Assembly (NCBI RefSeq): GCF_902652985.1 | Contig: NC_047022.1 | Location: forward strand, 30,595,465 to 30,659,464 | Source of the DNA: Pecten maximus | Lineage: Eukaryota | DNA: 64,000 bases | Direction: 5' to 3' | Shown: in pieces, positions 15,953-63,520 of the stretch | Numbering within the stretch: the stretch's first letter is position 1 | How the letters are laid out: every line of letters starts with the position of its first letter | Position numbers and translations under genes: made by a program | Notes under the pieces: model-generated | Database searches by the model: none | What the model was told of the DNA's origin: nothing | The model's input: only the letters and a program-made list of their open reading frames with translations

Positions 15953-16724
15953 CTGTAACAAGGCATTACCATGACAACAACAGGAGGTAAGTAAGGTAAC
16001 ACAGCTATACTAACACACCATTCATATCTGGCAACTAGACAATGCAGCGAATTACAGTCCTCACCGAATGTGAAGTTGTATGCCAAGAATACACAGATGA
16101 ATATTTACTGTAAGGGTTGTCTTTTTACCATGAAGTTAGAACTGGAGCCACCTATTCATTATTTGATTGCATTTGGTGGTATGGATTTTAGTGATATTAC
16201 TAATTTTATATCAGAATTCAAATGTGAAAACAAAAAAAAATCAAAGAGGCGATGCGACTAATTTGATAAATGATAATGCCCATTATATGGTGTAAAATCA
16301 TTTGTGCTTGTTTGAACTGATAATATAACTTCAAATTTGGCAGTTTACCAATTTAATTGGTTAAATACTGAATTTGATACTGTTTCCTGAACTAGAAATA
16401 TTTGATACCTGAATCCACTAAATTGTATTTAAAAGGAAATATTACACCTTGTGTATACATACAGATGTATCAGGATCAGACTGTATGGAAACTAAATAAC
16501 TATGTCAATGTATTACAAACATACATGGAAGAAAGAATCTGGTTGGTTTTTTTCAATGCCCCAGGTATGAAGTGCCAGTGTTGAGAAGCATGGAAGATTA
16601 TTTTATGTAGGTCAAAGGTCAAAATGTGTTACCCAACACACCACTTTGTTTAAGAAAAGTGTAGGAGATAGAGCCAGGACAAGATGATGTGTGGACGGAC
16701 GGACACAACGTAAAACTATAGCCC

Positions 16725-16748
16725 CCCCCCCCCCCCCCCCCCCCCCCT
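16725..16748. repeat. Poly-C homopolymer (C24)
   Basis: Read directly from the sequence. Confidence 0.99.
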
Positions 16749-26830: not shown

Positions 26831-26932
26831 TCAAAAACCTTCCACCTCAAGGTTTTCTGGGGCTGCGGTGGCCGAGAGGTTCAGGTGTCCCGACACTTTA
26901 TCACTAGGCCTCCACCTCTAGGTTTTCTGGCT
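26831..26932 (+). mobile_element. Small tRNA-like insertion (gctgcggtggccgagaggttcaggtgtcc) flanked by 18-bp direct repeats (cctccacctc[at]aggttttctgg), in INO80E intron 3
   Basis: The direct repeats at 26831-26850 and 26913-26932 bracket a ~65-bp tRNA-Ser/Leu-like fragment. Confidence 0.4.
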
Positions 26933-27293
26933 CTGCCGTTTGGACTTAAACCAAGAGTGCAGCACACTAAGATGTCTGATTTACTTTTGATTGGAATAAA
27001 TATTTGATCCCAACACAATTTTCATATTCGAACAATTTGTCTGCAAACCATAAAACCTTAAAGAAATGTTTGGATTTTTAAAAGAAAATGGAAAATCTCA
27101 ACAGAGATGTATTGAATCAAACTATAGTTGAACTGCATGTAGTTTGAATGTTTTTGGTAAGATAAATGTCAGTCACAGCTAGGTTTATGAAAACTGATCT
27201 GCTGGAATGCATGGCCATGTAGATAAAACATGATCCATTCAAAAAACAAAATAGGACATGCACATTATCCTTACATGTCAATTGATTTTGTAG

Positions 27294-39649: not shown

Positions 39650-40610
39650 CTCTGTAGAGTATACTGTTTCCTGAACTACATTTGGTAAATATAAAGAGTA
39701 TAACCTACCCGTTTCCTGGCCAGACCCAATGACATAACAGCCTCTACGAGGGTTGTGTAGGAGTATAACCTACCTGTTTCCTGGGCCAGACTTGATGACA
39801 TGACAGCCTCTGTGAGGGTTGTGTATATAGGAGTATAACCTACCTGTTTCCTGGGCCAGACCCAATGACATAACAGCCTCTACGAGGGTTGTGTAGGAGT
39901 ATAACCTACCTGTTTCCTGGGCCAGACTTGATGACATGACAGCCTCTGTGAGGGTTGTGTATATAGGAGTATAACCTACCCGTTTCCTGGGCCAGACTTG
40001 ATGACATGACAGCCTCTGTGAGGGTTGTGTATATAGGGGTATAACCTACCTGTTTCCTGTGTCAGACTTGATGACATGACAGCCTCTGTGAGGGTTGTGT
40101 ATATAGGGGTATAACCTACCCGTTTCCTGGGCCAGATTTGATGACATGACAGCCTCTGTGAGGGTTGTGTATATAGGGGTATAACCTACCTGTTTCCTGG
40201 GCCAGACTTGATGACATGACAGCCTCTGTGAGGGTTGTGTATATAGGGGTATAACCTACCTGTTTCCTGTGCCAGACTTGATGACATGACAGTCTCTGTG
40301 AGGGTTGTGTATATAGGAGTATAACCTACCTGTTTCCTGTGCCAGACTTGATGACATGACAGCCTCTGTGAGGGTTGTGTATATAGGGGTATAACCTACC
40401 TGTTTCCTGTTCCAGACTTGATGACATGACAGCCTCTGTGAGGGTTGTGTATATAGGGTTATAACCTACCTGTTTCCTGTGCCAGACTTGATGACATGAC
40501 AGCCTCTGTGAGGGTTGTGTATATAGGGGTATAACCTACCTGCTTCCTGTGCCAGACTTGATGACATGACAGCCTCTGTGAGGGCTGGGTGTATTGATAT
40601 TCCTCCCTGG
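39650..40610. repeat. 70-bp tandem array, about 13 copies (unit ataacctacctgtttcctgggccagacttgatgacatgacagcctctgtgagggttgtgtatataggggt)
   Basis: Period 70 confirmed from line offsets. The unit is a copy of the last ~31 nt of the adjacent coding exon (40540-40660) plus its GT donor. Confidence 0.95.
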
Positions 40611-40660
40611 TCTAAAGTTGCTGTACTATCACAGTAGCCAGAGTTAGGGTTGTTCACCTC
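40540..40660 (-). CDS. C2H2-ZnF/coiled-coil gene, exon 4 (EVNNPNSGYCDSTATLDQGGISIHPALTEAVMSSSLAQEA)
   Basis: Acceptor ttattccag|, donor GCAG|gtaggt. Anchored to ORF 40466..40705. The 3' part of this exon plus its donor is the founder unit of the adjacent 70-bp tandem array. Confidence 0.75.
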
Positions 40661-41270
40661 CTGGAATAAAGATACAAAACATGAATCCTGAAAATGTTTG
40701 AACAAAACAAAATACTATAGTCATTCAATAGTCTGTCCTCATATTTACAAAAAAAAATTAAAAAAAACCCAAAAAAACACAACTGCTTTTAAAATAGAAA
40801 AAGGACCAAAAAATGATAAGGCATGAGATGCAATTTCAGTGAATGACATGTTGTCATCCCAATGACAATTATTTACAAGTATAAACCTATTCTACATGTA
40901 CATTGTACTCTTATATTCAACTATCCTACCTGTAATATATGTTGTACCTGTTTTACCTGTGTTTCACACACACACACACCTGTTCTACATGTATTTCACA
41001 ACAACATACTTTTATTCTTACTATCTAAGAGATACTTTTGTTTTACACCCCTCTATTCTATATTACACACCCTTGGCTTTACACATACATGTATCACCTA
41101 TTCTAACTGTATTTTACACATACTTATATTCCTGTAAATACATCATAAACACCTGCTTCAAATACTTCAATTTTACACACATACAGTCTTCATCTCTTTC
41201 GCACACATATGTTCTATCTTTATTGTATATTATCTATTCATTAGAATTTGATGATACACACCTGTGCTAC

Positions 41271-42739: not shown

Positions 42740-44082
<1,343 letters not shown>

Positions 44083-45757: not shown

Positions 45758-46891
45758 GTATATCTGCTTCTTGATTTTTTTGGTTTTTTAGTTAACATCC
45801 TATTAACAGCCAGGGTCATTTAAGGACGAGCCAGGATTTCTCCTTTGTCTTCTGTCCAGGAGTCATTTGAAAGCACAAGAAAAAGGCCCACTGTTATTAT
45901 ATAAGCCTGTATCCCACTGCATGTTGATTAGAAGGTGACTAAAAGTGGGCCCACTAATTCGGGGAATTTTCCATGTCTTCTTTTTAGGGGACATTGAAGA
46001 GACCAAAATGGATCCTCTGCCCCCATTGCAATACATGGGATCTTAAATCTTGCCTTACTGTTCTCTTTCTGTATTACATTTCTTTGTCTCCTTGGCACAC
46101 GTCCTCATATGACCCTGACTGTTGGGAGGATGTTAAACAACTAAAAAAAAAAAAAAAATGCTTCACACAATTACAGTGTAGTTCTTAAGACATGAGCCAT
46201 CTGTCCTAATTGAATGGTGTCTTATATGTATCAAATAAGTTACAGTACATTTATGAACATCTTTAATTCTTTTGTAGACTGTTGAAGATAACTTGCTGTC
46301 TTATAATATGTCCTTGAAGGAGTGATAAAACCTAAGGAGATATATAGTGTCATGTTTAATTTTTAGATTAATAACAAAATAGTGTATGATCTATTCTCTA
46401 CTCCCTGATAAGATCCATGTTAGCTTTAGAAGATCTCTTAGGAAGTTGATAGTAATCAATGTTCGATTAAGTTGCTTCATATTTCATGATTTGAAATCTA
46501 TGTACATGTATTAGTCCATAGTGTGTTGAGATTAGGAACAGTCCATCACTGTAAGTTTAGAAAGCTTAAGTCAATGTTTGAGATTTAGAGACCCTATTAT
46601 TTGGGTCCAGAATTAGTCAAAATAATTTTCTATACAGTACAAATATTTTGATTTCTTCTATTTCTTTAATCTATAAAGTCATTGAAATGACATTATTTCC
46701 TTTACAAGAGTCCTATTACATGCATTTATTGTTATTTACAGTACATTTGTTATATTTTACTTTTGTTTAACTTTCCATCATTTTATCAATATCTATTTCA
46801 GTATGTAATTTAAAAGTACTAACTTTGAAAATAAATTATATTTGCAAAATGACCTTGTTAAGAAATATGTACATATTTTTGTATTACAAAG

Positions 46892-50233: not shown

Positions 50234-50364
50234 GATTCACTTCCTGGTTACTTTGGCGCTCTGCCTATCTCACTCGTCTGGGAAGCTGGAGGCTGAGGAT
50301 GCAGGTACCACTGGATTGGTTAAAAACCATTCTGTATGGACGGGATGTGTCTCGATTCGAGTGA
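50234..50364 (+). CDS. NDH-2 terminal exon (GFTSWLLWRSAYLTRLGSWRLRMQVPLDWLKTILYGRDVSRFE*)
   Basis: Acceptor catttttcag|, stop TGA at 50362-50364. Matches the NDI1 C-terminus '[40 protein letters not shown]'. Confidence 0.88.
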
Positions 50365-50640
50365 ATATTTCAAGTTCTATTGAAAGCCATCAGGAATGTA
50401 TGGATGAAATGTCTCTTGAATCTCATGAAAATTTCTCATTCAGTAGAAAGTCAGCAATTCTTTATGGATGGGATATGTCTTGATTGGAATGAACATTAAT
50501 TTCTAATTCTTAAAAAAAGCTGTCATGAATGTATGGACAGAATGCATCCCAGTTTGAATGAACATTTCTCGTTCAATAGAAAGACCTTCAATTCTTTATG
50601 GAGGGGATGTGTCTTGATTCAAGTGAGAACTTTTGAAACG
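50300..50640. repeat. Tandem triplication of about 130 bp, covering the end of the NDH-2 terminal exon, its stop codon and proximal 3'UTR
   Basis: Three copies of ..attctttatgga[tg]gggat[ag]tgtcttgatt[cg][ag]a[ag]tga.. at about 50320, 50455 and 50588. Confidence 0.8.
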
Positions 50641-52934
50641 GATTGCTGTACAGTAGAAATATCATGGATTAGAATTCCTTAGAGTTTTTCTGTGAACACA
50701 GTGAATCAGATATATTCACAGCTCGTTGTGTTGAACATACCTCTGTAACTGTACCTGGTAGCTATCATAACTATAATTATTAATGAACCAAGTTCATGTA
50801 ATTTGAAAAATCATTCAAGTTGATTCAAGGGTCTTTTTTTAAGGGATTTGGATCCATTAATATTCGGAATATTGTGATGTTGTAAAGTGTTTCAGGGTGT
50901 AAAGCAGAGTTAATGGCTGATGTTCCCAGTGTGAATGATCAAAAGTGTGTGTAGTAGGTAGTCCTCAGGAATATTAATATTTGAGTCTCTGATTTTTTTC
51001 TATACCAAAATATGTTTTTCATGTCTCTATATAATAATTCATGGATAATATGAAATTATGAGTTCACTCAAAATATAAGTGCTTGTTATTTATGCAATGA
51101 TGTCGTATCCATTGTTGTTTTTTGTCAACATTTCCTTACAATAATTGTTTCTACAGAACCACAATACCAAGGACCATGATATTGTTTGTTGTAGCATTTT
51201 CTAACTCCTTTAGATAATTATGCAAGAAAAAGAAGGAATAAATTGTAAGATTAAAATTGTAAACCTACTTACATATTACTAAGGAGGGGAGAGGAGCCAA
51301 CGTCAGATGGAAATCAGTGGGTCTTCTAAGTGTGGAAATTCGCGTTGAGTATGGATACCTTAAAAGGTATGCTGGACAGTTCAAGCAAATAGACTAATTA
51401 TAAACAAGGGAAAATAACCGCAACATACTCACGCTTAACCGATAAGTGGAGATTTTATTGGACTACTAGTTTCGACCCTATCGCAGGGTCTTCATCAGGA
51501 CAATTTTTTCATAAAAGTTTCCCAATATTCGATTGTTAAATATGATGTAATACTAATAGTAAATAAAGGGCAGATAATTGCCTTATGTTTATACCTTTAA
51601 CCAGTCTTTGAATGTAATTAAAATTAATTAACAGTGTTCATTTGTTTTTCCAATGGTTCATTCCTTCTCATCCGGACAGATAGTATGTGTACTTACATAT
51701 AAATTGTATGTATTAATTTTTTACATTGTCAAGTACAGTGTAATGAATTTATAAATTTGTTAAACTTTTCTCATATTTACAGTTATATTACTCTCTAAAG
51801 AGTTTGAAGTAGACAATTCAAACACTTTCATCAAATCAAGTGCCTTGCAATGAGTAAAGGTGTAGATTCATGACATAGGAGAAATGTTACCATTAATATG
51901 ACATGCATATTTTTATGAAGTCCAATTTGATCATATTATAGCAAACATTTTTTCCATAAGTGCTTCATGTTGCATCTCATTATTTAATTTGCTTCTCTAT
52001 AGTTTAATATTGGAAATATGAATGTAATGATCTAGGGCCTGTTCGTTTATGCGGACAAACTGGTTCGTCTGTTTTTAAATGTAATATTTCAAACATATAT
52101 CTTGACGGACCTGCAAATGTTAATACAGGCCTTGGGAGTCTTTGTCAAGGCTCGTCTGAAAACAATAAAAAATCAACAGGTCCGGTTTATTTCTTAAACA
52201 AACAACATCAGTCCAAGTGGTCTAACCGTTTGGACCGCAAAAACGAAAACGGCCCTAATGACAAAGTTCTTGATTACCTCCCCTGGAAACGTGAACTTGT
52301 TCACCTTGTTCTCACAGGAGGTTGTAGTTAACCTCTGTTTGAATGTGATTTGTATGTTAATGTTTTTCTCAAGTAAGATACTATAAAGGTAAGAATTGTA
52401 TAATTCAAATTATAATGCATACTGTTCAAAGGAATCCCCTACAAAATGTTGAGCATTATACATCTTGTATGCTTTCTTTTCACCCGGTGATTTCCTTGAT
52501 CAATACAAATGAATTCCAAAATTACGGGTTCTTTCTATTTAGAATTTTACACAACATATAAATATGTTTAATCAAATCAACAAGATTGATGTATTTGATT
52601 TCAAATACCCATAATGGTATTTCTTTATTATTGTATTTATTTACTAAAAGGTTTATTTTTATCAACTTGTCTGTGTTTTATCATGTTAATGGACTTTATG
52701 ATTATCAGCATATGTAAATTATGATAGTAATTTACAAATATTTATCCAAATAGAAACCACTTTAAATGTTTCAAATGAGGATCATTAAAATATTTATAGA
52801 ATTTTATTTAGTTTTCCCTTGCTTTTTTTTTTTTACAGAAATACATAATTCTTTAATCCTCAATAGCCTTCCTTGTGTCTAGAGAAACAAATACCTGGTT
52901 ATTATTGGAAGATAATATAGAATATATTTTTGTC

Positions 52935-54020
52935 TATAGATATACATGTTACGTACGAGAATCCTAAATCACTTTCCCTTATGTCTACAGAAATACATGT
53001 TACTGGAATCTTCCATCATCTTCCCTTATGTCTACAGAAATGCATGTTAATGGAATCCTCATTCAACTTCAATCATGTCTACAGAAATACACATGAGTGG
53101 AATCTTTTCAACCACCTCCCCTTATGTCTACAGAAATACACATTACTGGAATCTTCAATCCCCTTCCCTTGTGTCTACAGAAATACACATTACTGGAATC
53201 TTCAATCCCCTTCCCTTGTGTCTACAGAAATACACATTACTGGAATCTTCAATCCCCTTCCCTTGTGTCTACTGAAATACACATTACTGGAATCTTCAAT
53301 CGCCTTCCCTTGTGTCTACTGAAATACACATTACTGGAATCTTCAATCGCCTTCCCTTATGTCTACAGAAATACACATTACTGGAATCTTCAATCCCCTT
53401 CCCTTGTGTCTACTGAAATACACATTACTGGAATCTTCAATCCCCTTCCCTTGTGTCTACTGAAATACACATTACTGGAATCTTCAATCGCCTTTCCTTG
53501 TGTCTACAGAAATGCATGTTAATGGAATCCTCATTCAACTTCAATCATGTCTACAGAAATACACATGACTGGAATCTTTTCAACCACCTCCCCTTATGTC
53601 TACAGAAATACACATTACTGGAATCTTCAATCCCCTTCCCTTATGTCTACAGAAATACACATTACTGGAATCTTCAATCCCCTTCCCTTGTGTCTACAGA
53701 AATACATATTACTGGAATCTTCAATCCCCTTCCCTTGTGTCTACTGAAATACACATTACTGGAATCTTCAATCGCCTTCCCTTGTGTCTACAGAAATACA
53801 CATTACTGGAATCTTCAATCCCCTTCCCTTGTGTCTACAGAAATACACATTACTGGAATCTTCAATCGCCTTCCCTTGTGTCTACAGAAATACACATTAC
53901 TGGAATCTTCAATCCCCTTCCCTTGTGTCTACTGAAATACACATTACTGGAATCTTCAATCGCCTTCCCTTGTGTCTACAGAAATACACATTACTGGAAT
54001 CTTCAATCCCCTTCCCTAGG
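52935..54020. repeat. 47-bp minisatellite (ccttcccttgtgtctacagaaatacacattactggaatcttcaatcc), about 23 copies
   Basis: Visible periodicity. The ORFs at 52930-54126 are artefacts. Confidence 0.95.
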
Positions 54021-54900
54021 TGGAGGGCTAGTGATAAAGTGCCGGACACCTTGGCCTCTCTGGCAGCGCCCCCCCCCCCCCCAATTTCAAACAGATAACA
54101 AAAAGGCAGCCCAAATAAGGTGTTGAAAATATGAACAATTTTATAATAAAATAGTGTAGCGCGAAAATCCCCGGCGAACTCAACAACCGTGTCACAGTTC
54201 CGGAGTCACTCGGCAATGCCCTCAGTGGTAGCGTCGGGCACTCGCTACAATGTCCGAGTTTTGGATAATTTAGTATACGTGGGCTGTCGAGAACATCACA
54301 AAACAACACCGTCTCCCGGTTTCAGACTCTTGTATTCAGTATCGGCAACATGTACAACAGTTACACAGTTTGAGGTAAATCCCTCTCAAACATATCCAGC
54401 ACAATCCAACATAGCAACACCTAGGCACCTCGAATCCGAACTCCCTGAGCTCTCTCTCACTCTTCCTTATATACTCCAGTCTGTCGGGCAACGATTGCCC
54501 GATCGGGCAAACGTGTCCTGAACTGACCTTCTGACATAACTTGACCAAATCCTGTCGGAGCAGTCGGGCAAACTGCCGGAGCAGTCGGCAAACTGTCGGA
54601 GCAGGCGGTCCGTTGACCTAGATATGTGGATACACATACACGTAAACATTTAGATGGTAATTAGGGATGAGTATATGATGACCATAGGTAATATAGACAG
54701 AGGACCTATAAAGAACCCACAGAGTGATCTCCCGAAGCCATGGGGCAATAAATCTCAAACAGTGTCAAACGTAGACCAGTAGCCACGGATCAAGGTAATT
54801 AAAACGTTATCAGTGAATGACCGGTGTATTATGCTGCCTAAAATCTCACGGTCCGCATGTACATAATTAAGTCGGGCAATGTAGGGCAAATAGGGCACCC
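54020..54900. other. CpG/GC-rich island of about 0.9 kb with nested palindromes (TTGCCCGATCGGGCAA) and about 20-bp tandem GAGCAGTCGG(G)CAAACTG repeats, preceded by a C13 tract
   Basis: Its composition departs sharply from the flanking AT-rich satellite DNA. It contains no recognisable ORF. Confidence 0.6.
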
Positions 54901-55016
54901 CATCTAATTACTCATGGTCAACATAAACCTGAACTACTAAAACTACTAACACTAACATTTCTAACTAAATATAATAGAATAACGAAATATACTACACTAG
55001 ATAATTATGAATAACA

Positions 55017-55934: not shown

Positions 55935-56296
55935 CTAGTAGGTGCTGACTGGCTTTTCATTCAGAGCACAGAAAAGGTACCAAGTAGCTGTGTGAAGGGA
56001 ATGCCCTAGTTCTAGTTGCCTGCAGAGCCGCTCATGTTCCCTGCGATTTTGTAGTAACCACTGATGTACGTCCTGCAGTTCCTTGTTATTTGTTCTCTGT
56101 CCCTGTGGCGTGTCCAACTTGACAGACATGACATCACCACTGAGTAAATTCCAGTTGGTCGATTCCAAACATGCAAACCCCTCTTTGTTCAACTTCATTT
56201 TCCCCCCGTTCTTCTGTTGGTAGATGACCTGTACTATCTTGAAGAAGGCAAGATAGGTGGCAATCATTTTCTCCCCTGATGATGCAGCTTGGTTCC
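55935..56296 (-). CDS. Gene X terminal exon (GNQAASSGEKMIATYLAFFKIVQVIYQQKNGG...WYLFCALNEKPVSTY*)
   Basis: Acceptor aatgttgtag|. Anchored to ORF 55935..56267. Stop TAG at 55937-55935. I could not assign a protein family from memory. Confidence 0.65.
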
Positions 56297-56657: not shown

Positions 56658-57029
56658 CTGCACAACACAAAAATGAACACAATTACCCAACAAGATGATG
56701 AAAGTGAAGATTTCTAAGACTGAAAAGTTTTCTGCATTAAATATCTTTGAAGAAAATCCGAAAGCATAATGTCATTAGGTCACTGGACTGAAAAGATGAG
56801 ATAATAATTGTGAAACACAAATTAGTGGGATGCACTGTACCTCCCTGACAAGTGTGATAAACTATTTCTCAATGTATCTCACTGAGAAGCTTATCATGTT
56901 TATCTGCATTAAAGCTCTGTCCCACAAATATGTCCCTTTCTGTATCTTTGCAGAATCATCAATTTTATTAAGTGGTTCATAAATAAGCTCTCCTCAAGTT
57001 TTAATAATTTTTACACTAGGTTTACTTGA

Positions 57030-57790
57030 GGGTAAATATGGTACTAAAATTGTTCATTAGGGGAGGGGGATTATTTGAGGATAAATATGGTACTAAAATT
57101 GTTCATTAGGGGAGGGGGATTATTTGAGGGTAAATATGGTACTAAAATTGTTCATTAGGGGAGGGGGATTATTTGAGGGTAAATATGGTACTAAAATTGT
57201 TCATTAGGGGAGGGGGATTATTTGAGGGTAAATATGGTACTAAAATTGTTCATTAGGGGAGGGGGATCATTTGAGGGTAAATATGGTACTAAAATTGTTC
57301 ATTAGGGGAGGGGGATCATTTGAGGGTAAATATGGTACTAAAATTGTTCATTAGGGGAGGGGGATTATTTGAGGGTAAATATGGTACTAAAATTGTTCAT
57401 TAGGGGAGGGGGATCATTTGAGGGTAAATATGGTACTAAAATTGTTCATTAGGGGAGGGGGATTATTTGAGGGTAAATATGGTACTAAAATTGTTCATTA
57501 GGGGAGGGGGATTATTTAGGGTAAATATGGTACTAAAATTGTACATTAGAGGAAAGGGGTTATTTGAGGATAAATAGATACAAAAATTGTACATTTTGAA
57601 GAGTTTATTTAAGGATTAATAGGGTACAGAAATTGTACACTGGAAGGGGGGGGGGGGGGGGGGGTGTTATTCGAGGATAAATAGGGTACAAAAATTGTAC
57701 ACTAATGGAGGGGGGTAATTTGAGGATAAATAAGTACAAAAATAGTACACTTTGAAGTGTTTATTTGAGGATTGATAGGGTACACAAATT
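57030..57790. repeat. Minisatellite of about 50 bp (ggggagggggattatttgagggtaaatatggtactaaaattgttcatta), about 11 copies, plus divergent transition copies
   Basis: Same repeat family as the following 48-bp array but a distinct variant. Confidence 0.9.
57646..57663. repeat. Poly-G homopolymer (G18)
   Basis: Read directly from the sequence. Confidence 0.99.
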
Positions 57791-60405
57791 GTACTCAAGA
57801 GGAGGGGGAGTTATTTGAGGATAAATATGGAACTAAAATTGTACTCTAGAGGAGAGAGTTATTTGAGGATAAATATGGAACTAAACTTGTATTCTAGAGG
57901 AGGGGTTTATTTGAGGATAAATATGGAACTAAAATTGTATTCTAGAGGAGGGGTTTATTTGAGGATAAATATGGAACTAAAATTGTACTCTAGAGGAGGG
58001 GTTTATTTGAGGATAAATATGGAACTAAAATTGTACTCAAGAGGAGGGAGTTATTTGAGGATAAATATGGAACTAAAATTGTACTCAAGAGGAGGGGGAG
58101 TTATTTGAGGATAAATATGGAACTAAAATTGTACTCTAGAGGAGAGAGTTATTTGAGGATAAATATGGAACTAAACTTGTACTCAAGAGGAGGGGTTTAT
58201 TTGAGGATAAATATGGAACTAAAATTGTATTCTAGAGGAGGGGTTTATTTGAGGATAAATATGGAACTAAAATTGTATTCTAGAGGAGGGAGTTATTTGA
58301 GGATAAATATGGAACTAAAATTGTACTCAAGAGGAGGGGTTTATTTGAGGATAAATATGGAACTAAAATTGTACTCAAGAGGAGGGAGTTATTTGAGGAT
58401 AAATATGGAACTAAAATTGTATTCTAGAGGAGGGGTTTATTTGAGGATAAATATGGAACTAAAATTGTATTCTAGAGGAGGGGTTTATTTGAGGATAAAT
58501 ATGGAACTAAAATTGTACTCTAGAGGAGGGGTTTATTTGAGGATAAATATGGAACTAAAATTGTACTCAAGAGGAGGGAGTTATTTGAGGATAAATATGG
58601 AACTAAAATTGTACTCAAGAGGAGGGGGAGTTATTTGAGGATAAATATGGAACTAAAATTGTACTCTAGAGGAGAGAGTTATTTGAGGATAAATATGGAA
58701 CTAAACTTGTATTCTAGAGGAGGGGTTTATTTGAGGATAAATATGGAACTAAAATTGTATTCTAGAGGAGGGGTTTATTTGAGGATAAATATGGAACTAA
58801 AATTGTACTCTAGAGGAGGGGTTTATTTGAGGATAAATATGGAACTAAAATTGTACTCAAGAGGAGGGAGTTATTTGAGGATAAATATGGAACTAAAATT
58901 GTACTCAAGAGGAGGGGTTTATTTGAGGATAAATATGGAACTTAAATTGTACTCAAGAGGAGGGAGTTATTTGAGGATAAATATGGAACTAAAATTGTAT
59001 TCTAGAGGAGGGGTTTATTTGAGGATAAATATGGAACTAAAATTGTATTCTAGAGGAGGGGTTTATTTGAGGATAAATATGGAACTAAAATTGTACTCTA
59101 GAGGAGGGGTTTATTTGAGGATAAATATGGAACTAAAATTGTACTCAAGAGGAGGGAGTTATTTGAGGATAAATATGGAACTAAAATTGTACTCAAGAGG
59201 AGGGGTTTATTTGAGAATAAATATGGAACTAAAATTGTACTCAAGAGGAGGGGTTTATTTGAGGATAAATATGGAACTAAAATTGTACTCCAGAGGAGGG
59301 GTTTATTTGAGGATAAATATGGAACTAAAATTGTACTCAAGAGGAGGGGTTTATTTGAGAATAAATATGGAACTAAAATTGTATTCTAGAGGAGGGGGAG
59401 TTATTGGAGGATAAATATGGAACTAAAATTGTACTCAAGAGGAGGGGATTATTTGAGGATAAATATAGAACTAAAATTGTACTCTAGAGGAGGGGTTTAT
59501 TTGAGGATAAATATGGAACTAAAATTGTACTCTGGAGGAGGGGTTTATTTGAGGATAAATATGGAACTAAAATTGTACTCTAGAGGAGGGGATTATTTGA
59601 GGATAAATATGGAACTAAAATTGTACTCAAGAGGAGGGAGTTATTTGAGGATAAATATGGAACTAAAATTGTACTCAAGAAGAGGGAGTTATTTGAGGAT
59701 AAATATGGAACTAAAATTGTATTCTAGAGGAGGGGTTTATTTGAGGATAAATATGGAACTAAAATTGTACTCAAGAGGAGGGGTTTATTTGAGGATAAAT
59801 ATGGAACTAAAATTGTACTCAAGAGGAGGGGGAGTTATTTGAGGATAAATATGGAACTAAAATTGTACTCTAGAGGAGGGGATTATTTGAGGATAAATAT
59901 GGAACTAAAATTGTACTCTAGAGGAGGGGTTTATTTGAGGATAAATATGGAACTAAAATTGTACTCTAGAGGAAGGGGAGTTATTTTAGGATAAATATGG
60001 AACTAAAATTGTACTCTAGAGGAGGGGTTTATTTTAGGATAAATATGGAACTTAAATTGTACTCTAGAGGAGGGGTTTATTTGAGGATAAATATGGAACT
60101 AAAATTGTACTCTAGAGGAGGGGTTTATTTGAGGATAAATACGGAACTAAAGTTGTACACGTTTGGAGGGGATTATTTGAGGATAAAATACGGAGCTAAA
60201 ATTGTACACTATTGGAGTGGATTATTTGAGGATAAATATGGAACTAAAATTGTACTCTAGAGGAGGGGATTATTTGAGGATAAATATGGAACTAAAATTG
60301 TACTCTAGAGGAGGGGATTATTTGAGGATAAATATGGAACTAAAATTGTACACTATGGGAGGAGATTATTTGAAAGTAAATATGTTAGGTGTGATAAATT
60401 ATTTC
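57790..60405. repeat. 48-bp minisatellite (ggaggggtttatttgaggataaatatggaactaaaattgtactctaga), about 54 copies and 2.6 kb, in the gene X intron
   Basis: The 48-bp unit is a multiple of 3, which creates the long artefactual ORFs at 57815-60420. Confidence 0.95.
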
Positions 60406-60771
60406 TCACTGACCAGTTAGTTAGTTTTTAAATGTAATATTTTAAACGTATATCTTGATGGACCTGCAAATGTTGATACAGGCCTTTGGAGTCTTTGTCA
60501 AGGCTTGTCTGAAAACAATATAAAATCACCAGGTCCGCCTTTATTTCATTAACGAACAACAAAAACACGACCCAGACAAATCTGCTGTGATTGCATACAG
60601 GAGGTCTCACCAAAAATCCAGGTAATATATGTGCAAAAACAGTGAGCCCAACATGAAGATTCATTAAATGGTCTGATTGATTAGAGAGCGTTGTCTACAT
60701 GTTAAGGTTAACCGTTTTTACGCATATATTTGTCAATTTCTCTAACTGATAAGTGTGATAAACACATGTAC

Positions 60772-62251: not shown

Positions 62252-62782
62252 CGAGCACCGTCTACACATTGGCAGTAACTAGTGAGGCAGACTTACAAGT
62301 AAGTACAAAATGTGTAGCTTTCTATGATATATTTATTTACTTCATCAATGAAAAGTTATCAGCACATGAATTTTAAGATATTTCTTCACCCTGTTCAATG
62401 GATTAAATACTGTAATTTTGGATTTTAATTTTGAAAACAAGCTGACAAAGTTGCATAGGTCATTTGGTTGCAATTCTGTACTACTCCGTTCAACAAAAAG
62501 ACATACAAACAACAATGTTGTTTTATTTTCTATTACCACAGTGTCAGTGTAGAACTGTTTATTTTCATTTCAAACTCGTCACAATGTCTTTGATATTTAG
62601 AGAGTTTAAATGTGACACAAATAGGTCTTTTTTACATACCACATTTCACGGTATTTCTTTGTTGTCTACACATAACTTATAGGCTCTAGATTATAATTAT
62701 ATTGTTAAATCGATTTTGTGTGGAATTTTGTTATGATCTGTATGATCGTTATTTTTGAATATATTTTAATTTGTGTATTCCC

Positions 62783-62805
62783 CCCCCCCCCCCCCCCCCC
62801 CCCAG
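62783..62805. repeat. Poly-C homopolymer (C23) that also serves as the polypyrimidine tract of the MSANTD4-like exon acceptor
   Basis: ..ccccccccccccccccccccccag|ATTATAGAC. Confidence 0.9.
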
Positions 62806-62955
62806 ATTATAGACAGTCGGAAAAAACAGGACAGATTCAGTGACCAGGACAACATGCTCCTACTGCATGAAGTCCTATCACGGAACCCATTTAAAAATAA
62901 GTCAAGATGGGGAGAAATTGTAGCTGTTCTTCCCCTTGATGTTGACATCCGCAGG
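62806..62955 (+). CDS. MSANTD4-like gene, Myb/SANT-like DNA-binding domain exon (IIDSRKKQDRFSDQDNMLLLHEVLSRNPFKNKSRWGEIVAVLPLDVDIRR)
   Basis: The acceptor is the C23 tract plus AG (cccccag|). Donor CGCAGG|gtttgg. Anchored to ORF 62773..63000. Resembles the MSANTD4 N-terminus '[27 protein letters not shown]...WEEIAQCV'. The start codon is unresolved (an internal ATG sits at 62854). Confidence 0.65.
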
Positions 62956-63035
62956 GTTTGGGAGCAAACCCATCTTCTTCTGTCTCAAATTAAGAAATAA
63001 GACCGAAGTTCAATAGCCAAGTATGTATTATTGTG

Positions 63036-63520
63036 GTTATTTTTTGTTTCTTTTTTTGTCAATCATATATGCTAAAATCTTTGAACGACTTCTTCTTGAT
63101 AACCAAAAGGCCCAGAGACCTAATATTGGGCCTGTAGCATGCTGGGATGAACGGCTACCAAGTTTGTTCAAATGGATGACCTTGACCTTCATTCAAGGTC
63201 AAAGGGGTCAAATATGAAAAAAATATTTGAACGACTTCTTCTTGATAACCAAAACGCCCAGAGACCCAATATTATATCTGTAGCATGCTGGGATGAAGGG
63301 CTACTAAGTTTGCTCAAATGGATGACCTTGACCTTCATTCAAGGTCACATGGGTCAAATATGCTAAAATCTTTAAATGACTTCTTCTTAATAACCAAAAG
63401 GTGCAGAGACCTGATATTGGGTCTGTAGCATGATGGGATGAAGGGCTACCAAGTTTGTTCGAATGAATGACCTTGACCTACATTCAAGGTCAAAGGGGTC
63501 AAATATGCTAAAATACATCA
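63036..63520. repeat. Tandem repeat of about 155 bp, 3 copies (..gaacgacttcttcttgataaccaaaaggcccagagacc..gatgaccttgaccttcattcaaggtcaaaggggtcaaatat..)
   Basis: Three diverged copies. Related 'tgacc..gtcaaggtcat' segments occur at 61960-62150 and 30540-30960. Confidence 0.85.

Follow-up and report, generated by a model that had tools for sequence, protein, structure and literature searches.

Make-up of the flagged interval

The analysed window comprises 64 kb of Pecten maximus (king scallop) DNA, within which an interval of 0.9 kb (54020–54900) had been flagged by a first-pass annotation. The block is located in a satellite-filled gap between genes; NDH2, the closest gene of annotated type, has its end at 50364 and is oriented in the direction of the block. 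The flagged 0.9 kb consists of four parts, namely a SINE-like head, a C14 tract, a spacer and a CpG-normal core, which are listed here together with repeats from their surroundings.

52034–52259: complete MITE with terminal inverted repeats (TIRs), CpG o/e 1.12
52959–54017, no strand: 47-bp satellite array, 22.4 copies (TRF), abutting the left edge from outside the island and cutting off the SINE-like head
54018–54068, minus strand: truncated head (about positions 7–50) of a dispersed tRNA-like repeat of SINE type (self-BLAST)
54069–54082, plus strand: C14 homopolymer (read from the sequence)
54083–54154, no strand: AT-rich spacer of 72 bp, composed like the surrounding intergenic DNA (GC 0.25, no CpG)
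54155–54900, no strand: CpG-normal, GC-rich, non-coding core (GC 0.479, 39 CpG, CpG o/e 0.92)
60416–60561: MITE fragment with CG-to-TG changes at aligned sites

With a GC content of 0.476 and a CpG o/e of 0.83, compared to 0.353 and 0.35 in the window, 54020–54900 does have the deviating composition which had been ascribed to it. The claim of a CpG-rich island of 0.9 kb, however, holds for 54155–54900 only, since the first 65 bp are made up of another repeat and the C tract while 54083–54154 is AT-rich and devoid of CpG. The edges are sharp with respect to CpG, which is absent from 54083–54154, dense from 54160 onwards and absent again past 54873. On both sides the GC content drops from about 0.48 in the core to 0.25–0.29 and the CpG o/e of the flanks amounts to 0–0.2. 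Since TpG is 1.04 in the core versus 1.29 in the window, i.e. not in excess, the core does not share the signature of deamination seen around it. Preserved CpGs alone are insufficient to account for the GC excess, as conversion of all 39 of them would, by simple arithmetic, still leave a GC content of about 0.43.

About 15 further CpG-normal patches (CpG o/e about 0.7 to 1.06) are present in the same 64 kb, so that the description of the island as “isolated” was overstated, and the CpG-normal state is common here and no hallmark of a promoter. Among these patches the flagged block ranks highest in GC content and CpG density. One other patch is the bidirectional promoter region of ADAT2, and CpG-normal patches thus need not be mobile elements. 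The placement “between two satellites” is accurate for the 47-bp array, which abuts at 54017, but not for the 48-bp array (57019–60384), which only begins 2.1 kb beyond the block. The two arrays are unrelated to each other; a foldback of both satellites, which show opposite skews, was considered and discarded (score 8 versus a shuffled mean of 9.3). Altogether, we regard this sharply bounded block of 0.75 kb as ordinary.

The first 65 bp of the flagged interval, comprising the SINE-like head and the C14 tract, are unrelated to the core. A second copy of the SINE-like repeat lies on the plus strand at 26859–26924, and self-BLAST of the window aligns 54018–54075 with 26917–26859 at 81%. Both copies align to the head of what we take to be a bivalve SINE (26868–26924 at 93%, 54060–54018 at 89%), the presumed tail of which also aligns at 45779–45839 and 46098–46140. 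At 54018–54068, to which this likeness to bivalve tRNA-derived SINEs is confined, body and tail are absent and the 47-bp satellite takes their place. Elements of this class are 200–700 nt long and combine a tRNA-related head, in which A and B boxes occur, with a body and a tail of microsatellite or poly-A type (PMC11481361), whereas only about 45–50 nt of head-like sequence were found at the 5′ edge. Since, in addition, neither Rfam nor ARAGORN calls a tRNA in this head, the 5′ edge represents a SINE-like fragment and not an element. SINEs are abundant in P. maximus, where 125,121 copies account for 2.19% of the genome (PMC7191990). The adjoining homopolymer, previously given as C13, in fact measures 14 nt; the 26.9-kb copy of the repeat has just CCCC at this site. 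Other long C or G runs of the window are a C26 at 16722, a G run at about 57646–57664 and a C24 at 62780.

Motif cluster, palindrome and promoter-like signals of the core

A single short motif recurs about twelve times in the core, once in inverted orientation. Eleven forward-strand copies conform to T[CA]GG(G)CA[ACT], while 0.42 are expected and at most four occurred in any of 2000 shuffles. TCGGGCA is found seven times in the 64 kb (1.29 expected), with six of the seven copies located inside the island. This clustering is unique within the window as well as within 64 kb of other scallop DNA. The motif sequence GTCGGGCAAA is a candidate target of a binding protein. When the literature was searched by sequence string, the sole match, probably due to chance, was to one of the motif strings and came from a Drosophila paper on another subject. 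The features of the core and its edges are as follows.

54150–54154, no strand: AATAG, left-hand member of a candidate target-site duplication of 5 bp, beside the first CpG at 54160; not significant alone
near 54446, minus strand: CTCAGGG, initiator-like, starting about 24 nt downstream of the TATA box, its A 27 nt from the first TATA T
54466–54473, minus strand: TATATAAG, sole canonical TATA box (TATAWAAR) in the core (pattern scan)
54483–54511, no strand: nested palindrome GTCGGGCAA-CGA-TTGCCCGA-TCGGGCAAA, three motif copies in forward-reverse-forward order
54552–54608, plus strand: 20/21-bp tandem repeat CGGAGCAGTCGG(G)CAAACTG(C/T) (TRF: period 20, 2.8 copies, 86% matches)
54747–54752, plus strand: AATAAA, sole canonical poly(A) signal in the core, with none on the minus strand
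54871–54900, plus strand: 10-bp periodic run GTCGGGCAAT / GTAGGGCAAA / TAGGGCACCC at the right edge of the core
54889–54893, no strand: AATAG, right-hand member of the candidate target-site duplication, embedded in the GGGCA run of 10-bp period and possibly internal to the element

The perfect 16-bp palindrome TTGCCCGATCGGGCAA reported earlier is indeed present at 54495–54510, as are its alternating arms CGGGCAA (54485), TTGCCCG (54495) and CGGGCAA (54504) and the further motif GTCGGGCAATGTAGGGCAAATAGGGCA at 54871–54897. Of the three tandem units which had been described, two are complete (54558–54598) while the third diverges after about 10 nt. Palindromes of at least 16 bp arise in 14 of 2000 dinucleotide shuffles, and 54470–54615, taken as single-stranded DNA, folds at −26.9 kcal/mol (z = −2.3). 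RNA folding of the island gives no structure signal (z = −0.38 and +0.99). Larger internal duplications were not found in the core.

The majority of the motif copies reside upstream of the minus-strand TATA box, some downstream of it. The plus strand of the core offers only a weaker TATATAC instead of a canonical TATA box, and it is the only strand with an ATTAAA (54798). By the formal vertebrate definition (at least 200 bp, GC at least 0.5, CpG o/e at least 0.6) the segment 54156–54620 qualifies as a CpG island (465 bp, GC 0.514, o/e 1.0); the GC content of the whole core, 0.479, is slightly below this threshold.

Searches for coding or structured RNA sequence remained negative throughout. 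The core has no convincing ORF, Pfam found nothing on the longest frames, a concatenated six-frame bait matched none of 5.8 billion proteins, and exact look-ups of the island ORFs in the protein collection returned nothing. Rfam yielded nothing credible, either for the whole window (gathering threshold) or for the island (permissive threshold), and ARAGORN predicted no tRNA. A convergent gene considered at 55935–56293 on the minus strand was dropped, having neither a homologue nor a Pfam match. The orthologous regions of Argopecten, Ylistrum and Mizuhopecten share nothing with 50.4–64 kb, nor is there a counterpart of the block in any of these three scallop genera, within available flanks which reach only 3–4.5 kb past NDH2.

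Origin of the core

Among the four origins proposed in the first-pass annotation, a transposon-derived one is the most likely. The reading which we regard as the best explanation, at somewhat less than an even chance, is that the core constitutes a relatively young non-coding remnant of a mobile element, possibly solo-LTR-like, with its own promoter and binding sites. A piece of a mobile element would have inserted into intergenic P. maximus DNA that was old, rich in AT and depleted of CpG; this piece could be a solo LTR or some other part with a promoter, drawn from the large “unclassified repeat” fraction of the genome. Its CpG-normal state would mean that it has either resided too briefly in a methylated germline or been too little methylated for CpG to be lost by deamination. 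The roughly 12 copies of GTCGGGCAA(A) in the same orientation would be putative binding sites of one sequence-specific protein, which may be a transcription factor acting on the promoter of the element or a transposase. The palindrome would then simply be three candidate binding sites set forward, reverse and forward.

The neighbourhood is a mosaic of repeats comprising the two satellites, the MITE, the MITE fragment and SINE-like pieces. The intact MITE with its CpG o/e of 1.12 and the fragment with its CG-to-TG changes indicate that CpG-normal repeat copies do occur in this genome. The match between 52.06 kb and 60.42 kb was also examined as a pair of bracketing direct repeats (LTRs) and rejected, as it joins one complete MITE to one fragment. 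Unclassified interspersed repeats make up 16.7% of the P. maximus genome, LTR elements only 0.52% (PMC7191990).

Like a solo LTR, the block is non-coding, measures about 0.73 kb, shows a candidate TG...CA pair with a 5-bp direct repeat at its compositional edges, carries repeated enhancer-like motifs beside a TATA box and looks, being CpG-normal, younger than its surroundings. LTR elements end in 5′-TG...CA-3′ flanked by a target-site duplication of 4–6 bp. The one candidate for such ends, with AATAG on either side, would span 54155–54888 (734 bp), exactly at the compositional boundaries; about 0.3 such pairs are expected by chance in the zone scanned according to our own estimate, and the right AATAG falls inside the GGGCA run. 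Joining the flanks of this candidate insertion connects ...TTATAATAAAATAG on the left with GGCACCCCATCTAATT... on the right. The location of the right AATAG within the periodic run suggests that the element continues further. Unlike a solo LTR, the block has its TATA box on the minus strand and AATAAA and ATTAAA on the plus strand, so that the U3-R-U5 arrangement of a TATA box followed by a poly(A) signal on the same strand is not found in the core. Furthermore, neither a second copy of the block (self-BLAST of the 64-kb window) nor internal retrotransposon sequence is seen, and LTR elements are rare in this genome. Beyond TG/CA the ends of the core show no terminal inverted repeats, and longer flanking direct repeats or a long target-site duplication are at chance level (301 of 1000 shuffles).

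The main rival, which we judge possible but unlikely, takes the block for a cis-regulatory island of the host, that is, the unmethylated TATA-box promoter or enhancer of an unannotated non-coding transcript which would extend along the minus strand in the direction of the SINE fragment and the 47-bp array, with the GTCGGGCAA cluster as a homotypic array of transcription factor sites. Such an origin would agree with the formal CpG-island properties of 54156–54620, with a single TATATAAG followed on the minus strand by a TCAG-type initiator about 27 nt downstream, with five to six motif copies within about 140 bp upstream of TATATAAG and with the uniqueness of the motif cluster; the ADAT2 region provides a precedent of a CpG-normal patch at a promoter. 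The block resembles vertebrate-type CpG-island or non-methylated-island promoters in having 465 bp of GC above 0.5 and o/e 1.0 in a CpG-depleted background and in combining a TATA box with an initiator-like sequence and clustered copies of a single motif, but differs from them in that no associated gene or conservation was found. Downstream there is neither gene nor ORF, the first ATG past the putative start opening only eight codons, and the island ORFs have no homologue in a protein collection which includes transcriptome-derived gene calls. The orthologous flanks show no conservation, although they cover only the 3–4.5 kb past NDH2; moreover, motif copies also occur downstream of the TATA box, and missing methylation alone cannot account for a GC excess of 20 points. 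The stronger version of this reading appears improbable to us. In it, a functional, unmethylated TATA-box promoter of the host would be driven by a homotypic cluster of some 12 copies of a hitherto undescribed motif, GTCGGGCAA(A), three of which, set forward, reverse and forward, would make up the palindrome, and its product would be a non-coding RNA that traverses the SINE fragment and the 47-bp array; this RNA would be, for example, a satellite transcript or a small-RNA precursor in the scallop.

Another reading, that the block is the subterminal region of a hAT- or CACTA-like DNA transposon with the GTCGGGCAA motifs as putative transposase-binding sites, one terminus near 54900 and the other one lost, strikes us as decidedly improbable. 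Ac/hAT and En/Spm-CACTA elements carry subterminal repeat arrays in which a short motif recurs many times, both directly and inverted, over a few hundred bp. In a similar manner, the block exhibits around a dozen copies of a 9–10-bp motif, one of them inverted, and their spacing tightens to a period of 10 bp at its right edge (54871–54900). Unlike these elements, however, it reveals no transposase remnant, no terminal inverted repeat partner and no target-site duplication: the sole TIR-like pair is AT-rich (54143–54159 with 54992–55008, three mismatches in 14) and lacks a consistent duplication. The motifs, moreover, are spread over the entire 700 bp instead of being gathered at both ends. Oyster HINEs typically carry short satellite-like arrays and a right flank which ends in a palindrome (PMC7492417). 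In line with this, an array immediately precedes the island, in which a strong palindrome is found. This raises the idea that a Helitron/Helentron-type element (HINE) carries the 47-bp array and has the block as its right-hand module, with the palindrome serving as 3′ hairpin. The likeness to Cg_HINE of oysters (PMC7492417), a block beside a short satellite-like array in a bivalve with a palindrome able to form a stem-loop, ends there, and the hallmarks of a rolling-circle end, when tested, turned out to be absent. No subterminal inverted repeats pair the flanks of the array, where 54018–54095 and 51500–52960 share a single 11-mer with one mismatch (about 0.2 expected, maximum 2), and left of the array (52760–52960) there is a T13 run but no GTCY-type microsatellite. 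The palindrome is not terminal but sits in mid-block, 480 bp from the array, with CpG-rich sequence running on for another 390 bp; the 65 bp directly right of the array begin with the SINE-like head; and the CTRR-like tetramers CTGA and CTGG near the hairpin are followed by A and not by T. This reading is already largely refuted and we give it next to no credence.

A foreign or artefactual origin of the block is likewise very improbable, whether as contamination from bacteria or a vector, as horizontally transferred DNA, as a mitochondrial non-coding insertion (NUMT) or as a chimera created at the C14 tract during assembly. A GC content of about 0.48 with normal CpG does resemble bacterial or organellar DNA, one junction coincides with a homopolymer, and a mild G+T excess is seen on the minus strand. 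Plasmids, phages and E. coli genomes, however, yielded no match to distant-mode BLASTN, and the ten prokaryotic and metagenome contigs that contain the palindrome pattern share at most 35 bp with the block, restricted to the motif. Pattern scans of metagenome, prokaryote-genome and viral contigs returned either motif-only matches in GC-rich bacteria or nothing, so that the collections searched support neither contamination or bacterial transfer nor the horizontal acquisition envisaged in the first-pass annotation. The absence of any ORF under the mitochondrial code and of mt-tRNA-like structures counts against a NUMT, and 72 bp of host-like AT-rich DNA between the C14 tract and the core speak against a chimera.

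Significance for scallop genomes

Beyond annotation the block matters little. If it belongs to a repeat family, it would enlarge the already sizeable set of unclassified repeats in scallop genomes by one entry and illustrate that CpG-normal patches may mark recent insertions in a CpG-depleted mollusc genome. If the host instead uses it as a promoter, the GTCGGGCAA cluster would provide a candidate transcription factor site and the block a possible start of satellite transcription, which would be of modest interest for gene regulation in molluscs.

Composition and parts of the flagged interval

With a GC content of 0.353, a CpG observed/expected ratio (o/e) of 0.35 and numerous minisatellites, the window is eukaryotic DNA. 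The interval 54020-54900 (GC 0.476, CpG o/e 0.83) does differ from it in composition, as the first-pass annotation had claimed, but its CpG-rich part is restricted to 54155-54900, and the flagged 0.9 kb is a composite made of four parts rather than one entity:

54018-54068, minus strand: head of a dispersed repeat, matching 26859-26917 at 81%
54069-54082: C14 tract (only CCCC at the equivalent point of the repeat copy at 26.9 kb), previously given as C13
54083-54154: AT-rich spacer, GC 0.25, no CpG, resembling the surrounding DNA
54155-54900: true island (core), GC- and CpG-rich, 746 bp

The core (GC 0.479) contains 39 CpGs (o/e 0.92), extending from 54160 to 54873, and displays no TpG excess (1.04 versus 1.29 in the window), while CpG o/e amounts to 0.2 in the kilobase following it. 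It had been described as isolated, but about 15 further patches of the window reach a CpG o/e of roughly 0.7-1.06, one of them spanning the interval that separates ADAT2 from the neighbour upstream of it, and a second one covering a complete MITE. Among these patches the island is the most GC-rich and CpG-dense and stands out in that only, being less unusual than had been claimed. As to its supposed position between two satellites, the left array (47-bp unit) is indeed adjacent, but the 48-bp array begins at 57019, 2.1 kb away.

A putative bivalve tRNA-like SINE sequence matches the repeat head and its relatives, aligning with 26868-26924 at 93% and with 54060-54018 at 89%. Its tail matches 45779-45839 and 46098-46140, located in NDH2 introns in opposite orientations (84-88% identity), and a weak alignment is found in the Argopecten locus. 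Since this putative comparator matches at several sites, the SINE-like family is real and dispersed. At 54018-54068 only repeat positions ~7-50 remain, the 47-bp satellite starting at the break point, and neither Rfam nor ARAGORN scored a tRNA in this head. The second head copy (within 26839-26940) is bracketed by a 20-bp direct repeat, CCAGAAAACCT[A/T]GAGGTGGA, an arrangement which looks more like a 1.3-copy tandem of a ~67-70-bp unit than like a simple insertion. The C14 tract is one of four long C/G homopolymers of the window, the others being located at 16722-16747 (C26), ~57646-57664 (G run) and 62780-62803 (C24); their flanks are mutually unrelated, the host genome has 35% GC, and the four may reflect either genuine expansion or errors of long-read assembly.

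Genes and further repeats of the window

ADAT2 is present as an intact single-exon ORF (43558-44082) whose product shows 100% identity with the Pecten maximus protein at NCBI, encoded on a 46-Mb chromosome, and 87-88% identity with those of three other scallops. Alignment to the Argopecten locus placed an NDH2-type gene on the plus strand, with 50364 as the end of its last exon, so that the flagged region lies ~3.7 kb downstream, in a long intergenic tract reaching at least the window end. The exon-like minus-strand ORF 55935-56293 was rejected as a gene because it has neither a homologue among 5.8 billion proteins nor a Pfam domain. Shortly after the end of NDH2 (50300-50632) follow two or three degenerate copies of the final ~45-65 bp of its coding exon, stop codon included; Mizuhopecten shows the same pattern (L013 16349-16790), suggestive of an ancient tandem duplication of the gene's 3' end.

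Within the span of an uncharacterised minus-strand gene upstream of ADAT2 lies a 70-bp minisatellite (12.8 copies, 39696-40673). Argopecten irradians carries a ~86% identical array at the syntenic position (L001 3940-4704); for tandem repeats, this is unusually strong conservation across genera. A 145-bp tandem repeat (3.1 copies, 63063-63514) is 66-73% similar to a Ylistrum balloti repeat situated inside the NDH2 gene span (L012 15586-16208) and thus represents a repeat family common to scallops. The ORF 62773-63000, which begins in the C24 tract as a poly-proline run and continues ...RFSDQDNMLLLHEVLSRNPFKNKSRWGEIVAV..., resembles by eye a Myb/MADF-type DNA-binding domain; Pfam gave no match at E <=0.1.

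The motif cluster of the core

The perfect 16-bp palindrome (54495-54510), its CGGGCAA/TTGCCCG arms and the GTCGGGCAATGTAGGGCAAATAGGGCA run are all present as first described. TCGGGCA occurs seven times in the window (1.29 expected), six of these within the island. The degenerate motif T[CA]GG(G)CA[ACT] has 11 forward-strand copies in the 746-bp core, where 0.42 would be expected and 2000 dinucleotide shuffles gave at most 4; the remaining 63 kb contain only three on that strand, and 64 kb of other scallop DNA contained no comparable cluster. Such clustering greatly exceeds chance. Taken by itself, the palindrome is modestly unusual, as 14 of 2000 shuffles yielded one of at least 16 bp, and is best seen as three motif copies arranged forward, reverse, forward; as single-stranded DNA its region folds slightly better than shuffles (z = -2.3). 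Of the three tandem units reported, two are full (20/21 bp), but the third degenerates after ~10 nt (TRF: 2.8 copies, 86% matches).

The island is neither a known RNA nor a coding sequence. Rfam returned no match for it, and neither strand displays an excess of RNA structure. Its reading frames lack Pfam domains, and all frames, used as bait against the protein collection, retrieved no relative, nor did exact look-up give a match. The mitochondrial code opened no frame, and no mt-tRNA-like structure was found.

Origin of the core

The block most likely derives from a transposon, and we tentatively favour, at somewhat less than even confidence, a young, non-coding mobile-element remnant. Its boundaries are sharp and its GC excess (~20 points) is too large, the loss of all 39 CpGs lowering GC only to ~0.43; for these reasons the block would be DNA of different origin inserted into old intergenic sequence rather than a product of mere methylation protection. 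The block lies amid a patchwork of repeats, including:

52034-52259: complete MITE-like element, ~226 bp, terminal inverted repeats TAGGGCCTGTTCGTTT...AAACGAAAACGGCCCTAA
60416-60561: partial MITE copy, internal fragment, 89% identical, directly after the 48-bp satellite

The intact copy, by eye Tourist/PIF-like, is CpG-normal (o/e 1.12) and the fragment shows CG-to-TG changes at aligned sites; the genome thus does contain CpG-normal repeat copies. Exactly on the compositional boundaries (54155-54888), a TG...CA pair flanked by AATAG as a 5-bp direct repeat delimits a candidate 734-bp element. The block also holds repeated motifs together with one canonical TATATAAG, a layout like that of a solo LTR or similar promoter-bearing remnant. 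The right AATAG, however, sits within a 10-bp periodic GGGCA run, ~0.3 such boundary pairs are by our estimate expected by chance in the scanned zone, longer flanking duplications are at chance level, and the TATA box and the core's only AATAAA are on opposite strands. LTR elements are also rare in the P. maximus genome, making up 0.52% of it against 16.7% for unclassified repeats (PMC7191990). Since the case is weak in these several ways, we go no further than a mobile-element remnant.

The main rival reading, an unmethylated host promoter or enhancer (the orphan promoter among the options first proposed), is possible though unlikely. A minus-strand TATA box (54473 to 54466) is followed ~27 nt later by an initiator-like CTCAGGG and preceded by five or six motif copies within ~140 bp, and 54156-54620 satisfies formal CpG-island criteria; the predicted transcript would be non-coding and enter both the SINE fragment and the 47-bp satellite. 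Orthologous flanks of other scallops, covering only 3-4.5 kb past NDH2, have nothing in common with the island region. That the block is the subterminal region of a DNA transposon is distinctly improbable. A Helitron-type end is at best a very slight chance: the Helentron model for satellite-like arrays of oyster (PMC7492417) involves subterminal inverted repeats, a microsatellite in the left flank and a palindrome at the terminus, whereas the island palindrome lies mid-block, and every Helentron feature tested fails. Nor do the 47-bp and 48-bp satellites, unrelated to each other, make the island a foldback centre, and the apparent LTR-like bracketing match (52.06 kb/60.42 kb) consists of the MITE and its fragment.

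Foreign or artefactual DNA, including the horizontal acquisition once suggested, is similarly remote, plasmids, phages and E. coli genomes showing nothing similar to the island. Prokaryotic and metagenome contigs carrying the palindrome pattern have <=35 bp in common with it, and a viral scan for the pattern gave no matches. The same TTGCCCGATCGGGCAA core is found in several bacterial contigs of soil-metagenome and Dyella sp. MAG origin (L003-L005, L010, L011), set within longer nested palindromes, e.g. CGGGCAATGGGTTGCCCGATCGGGCAACCCATTGCCCG, that recur next to a conserved TCAAGATGCTGATTTTATTGAAATCGGAC-type sequence. They resemble a repeated palindromic element of bacteria and are unrelated to the scallop locus.

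The features first noted are thus real and the options reasonable, a transposon origin being the likeliest of them. On the evidence at hand, the island is nothing out of the ordinary for a repeat-rich intergenic region of a bivalve.
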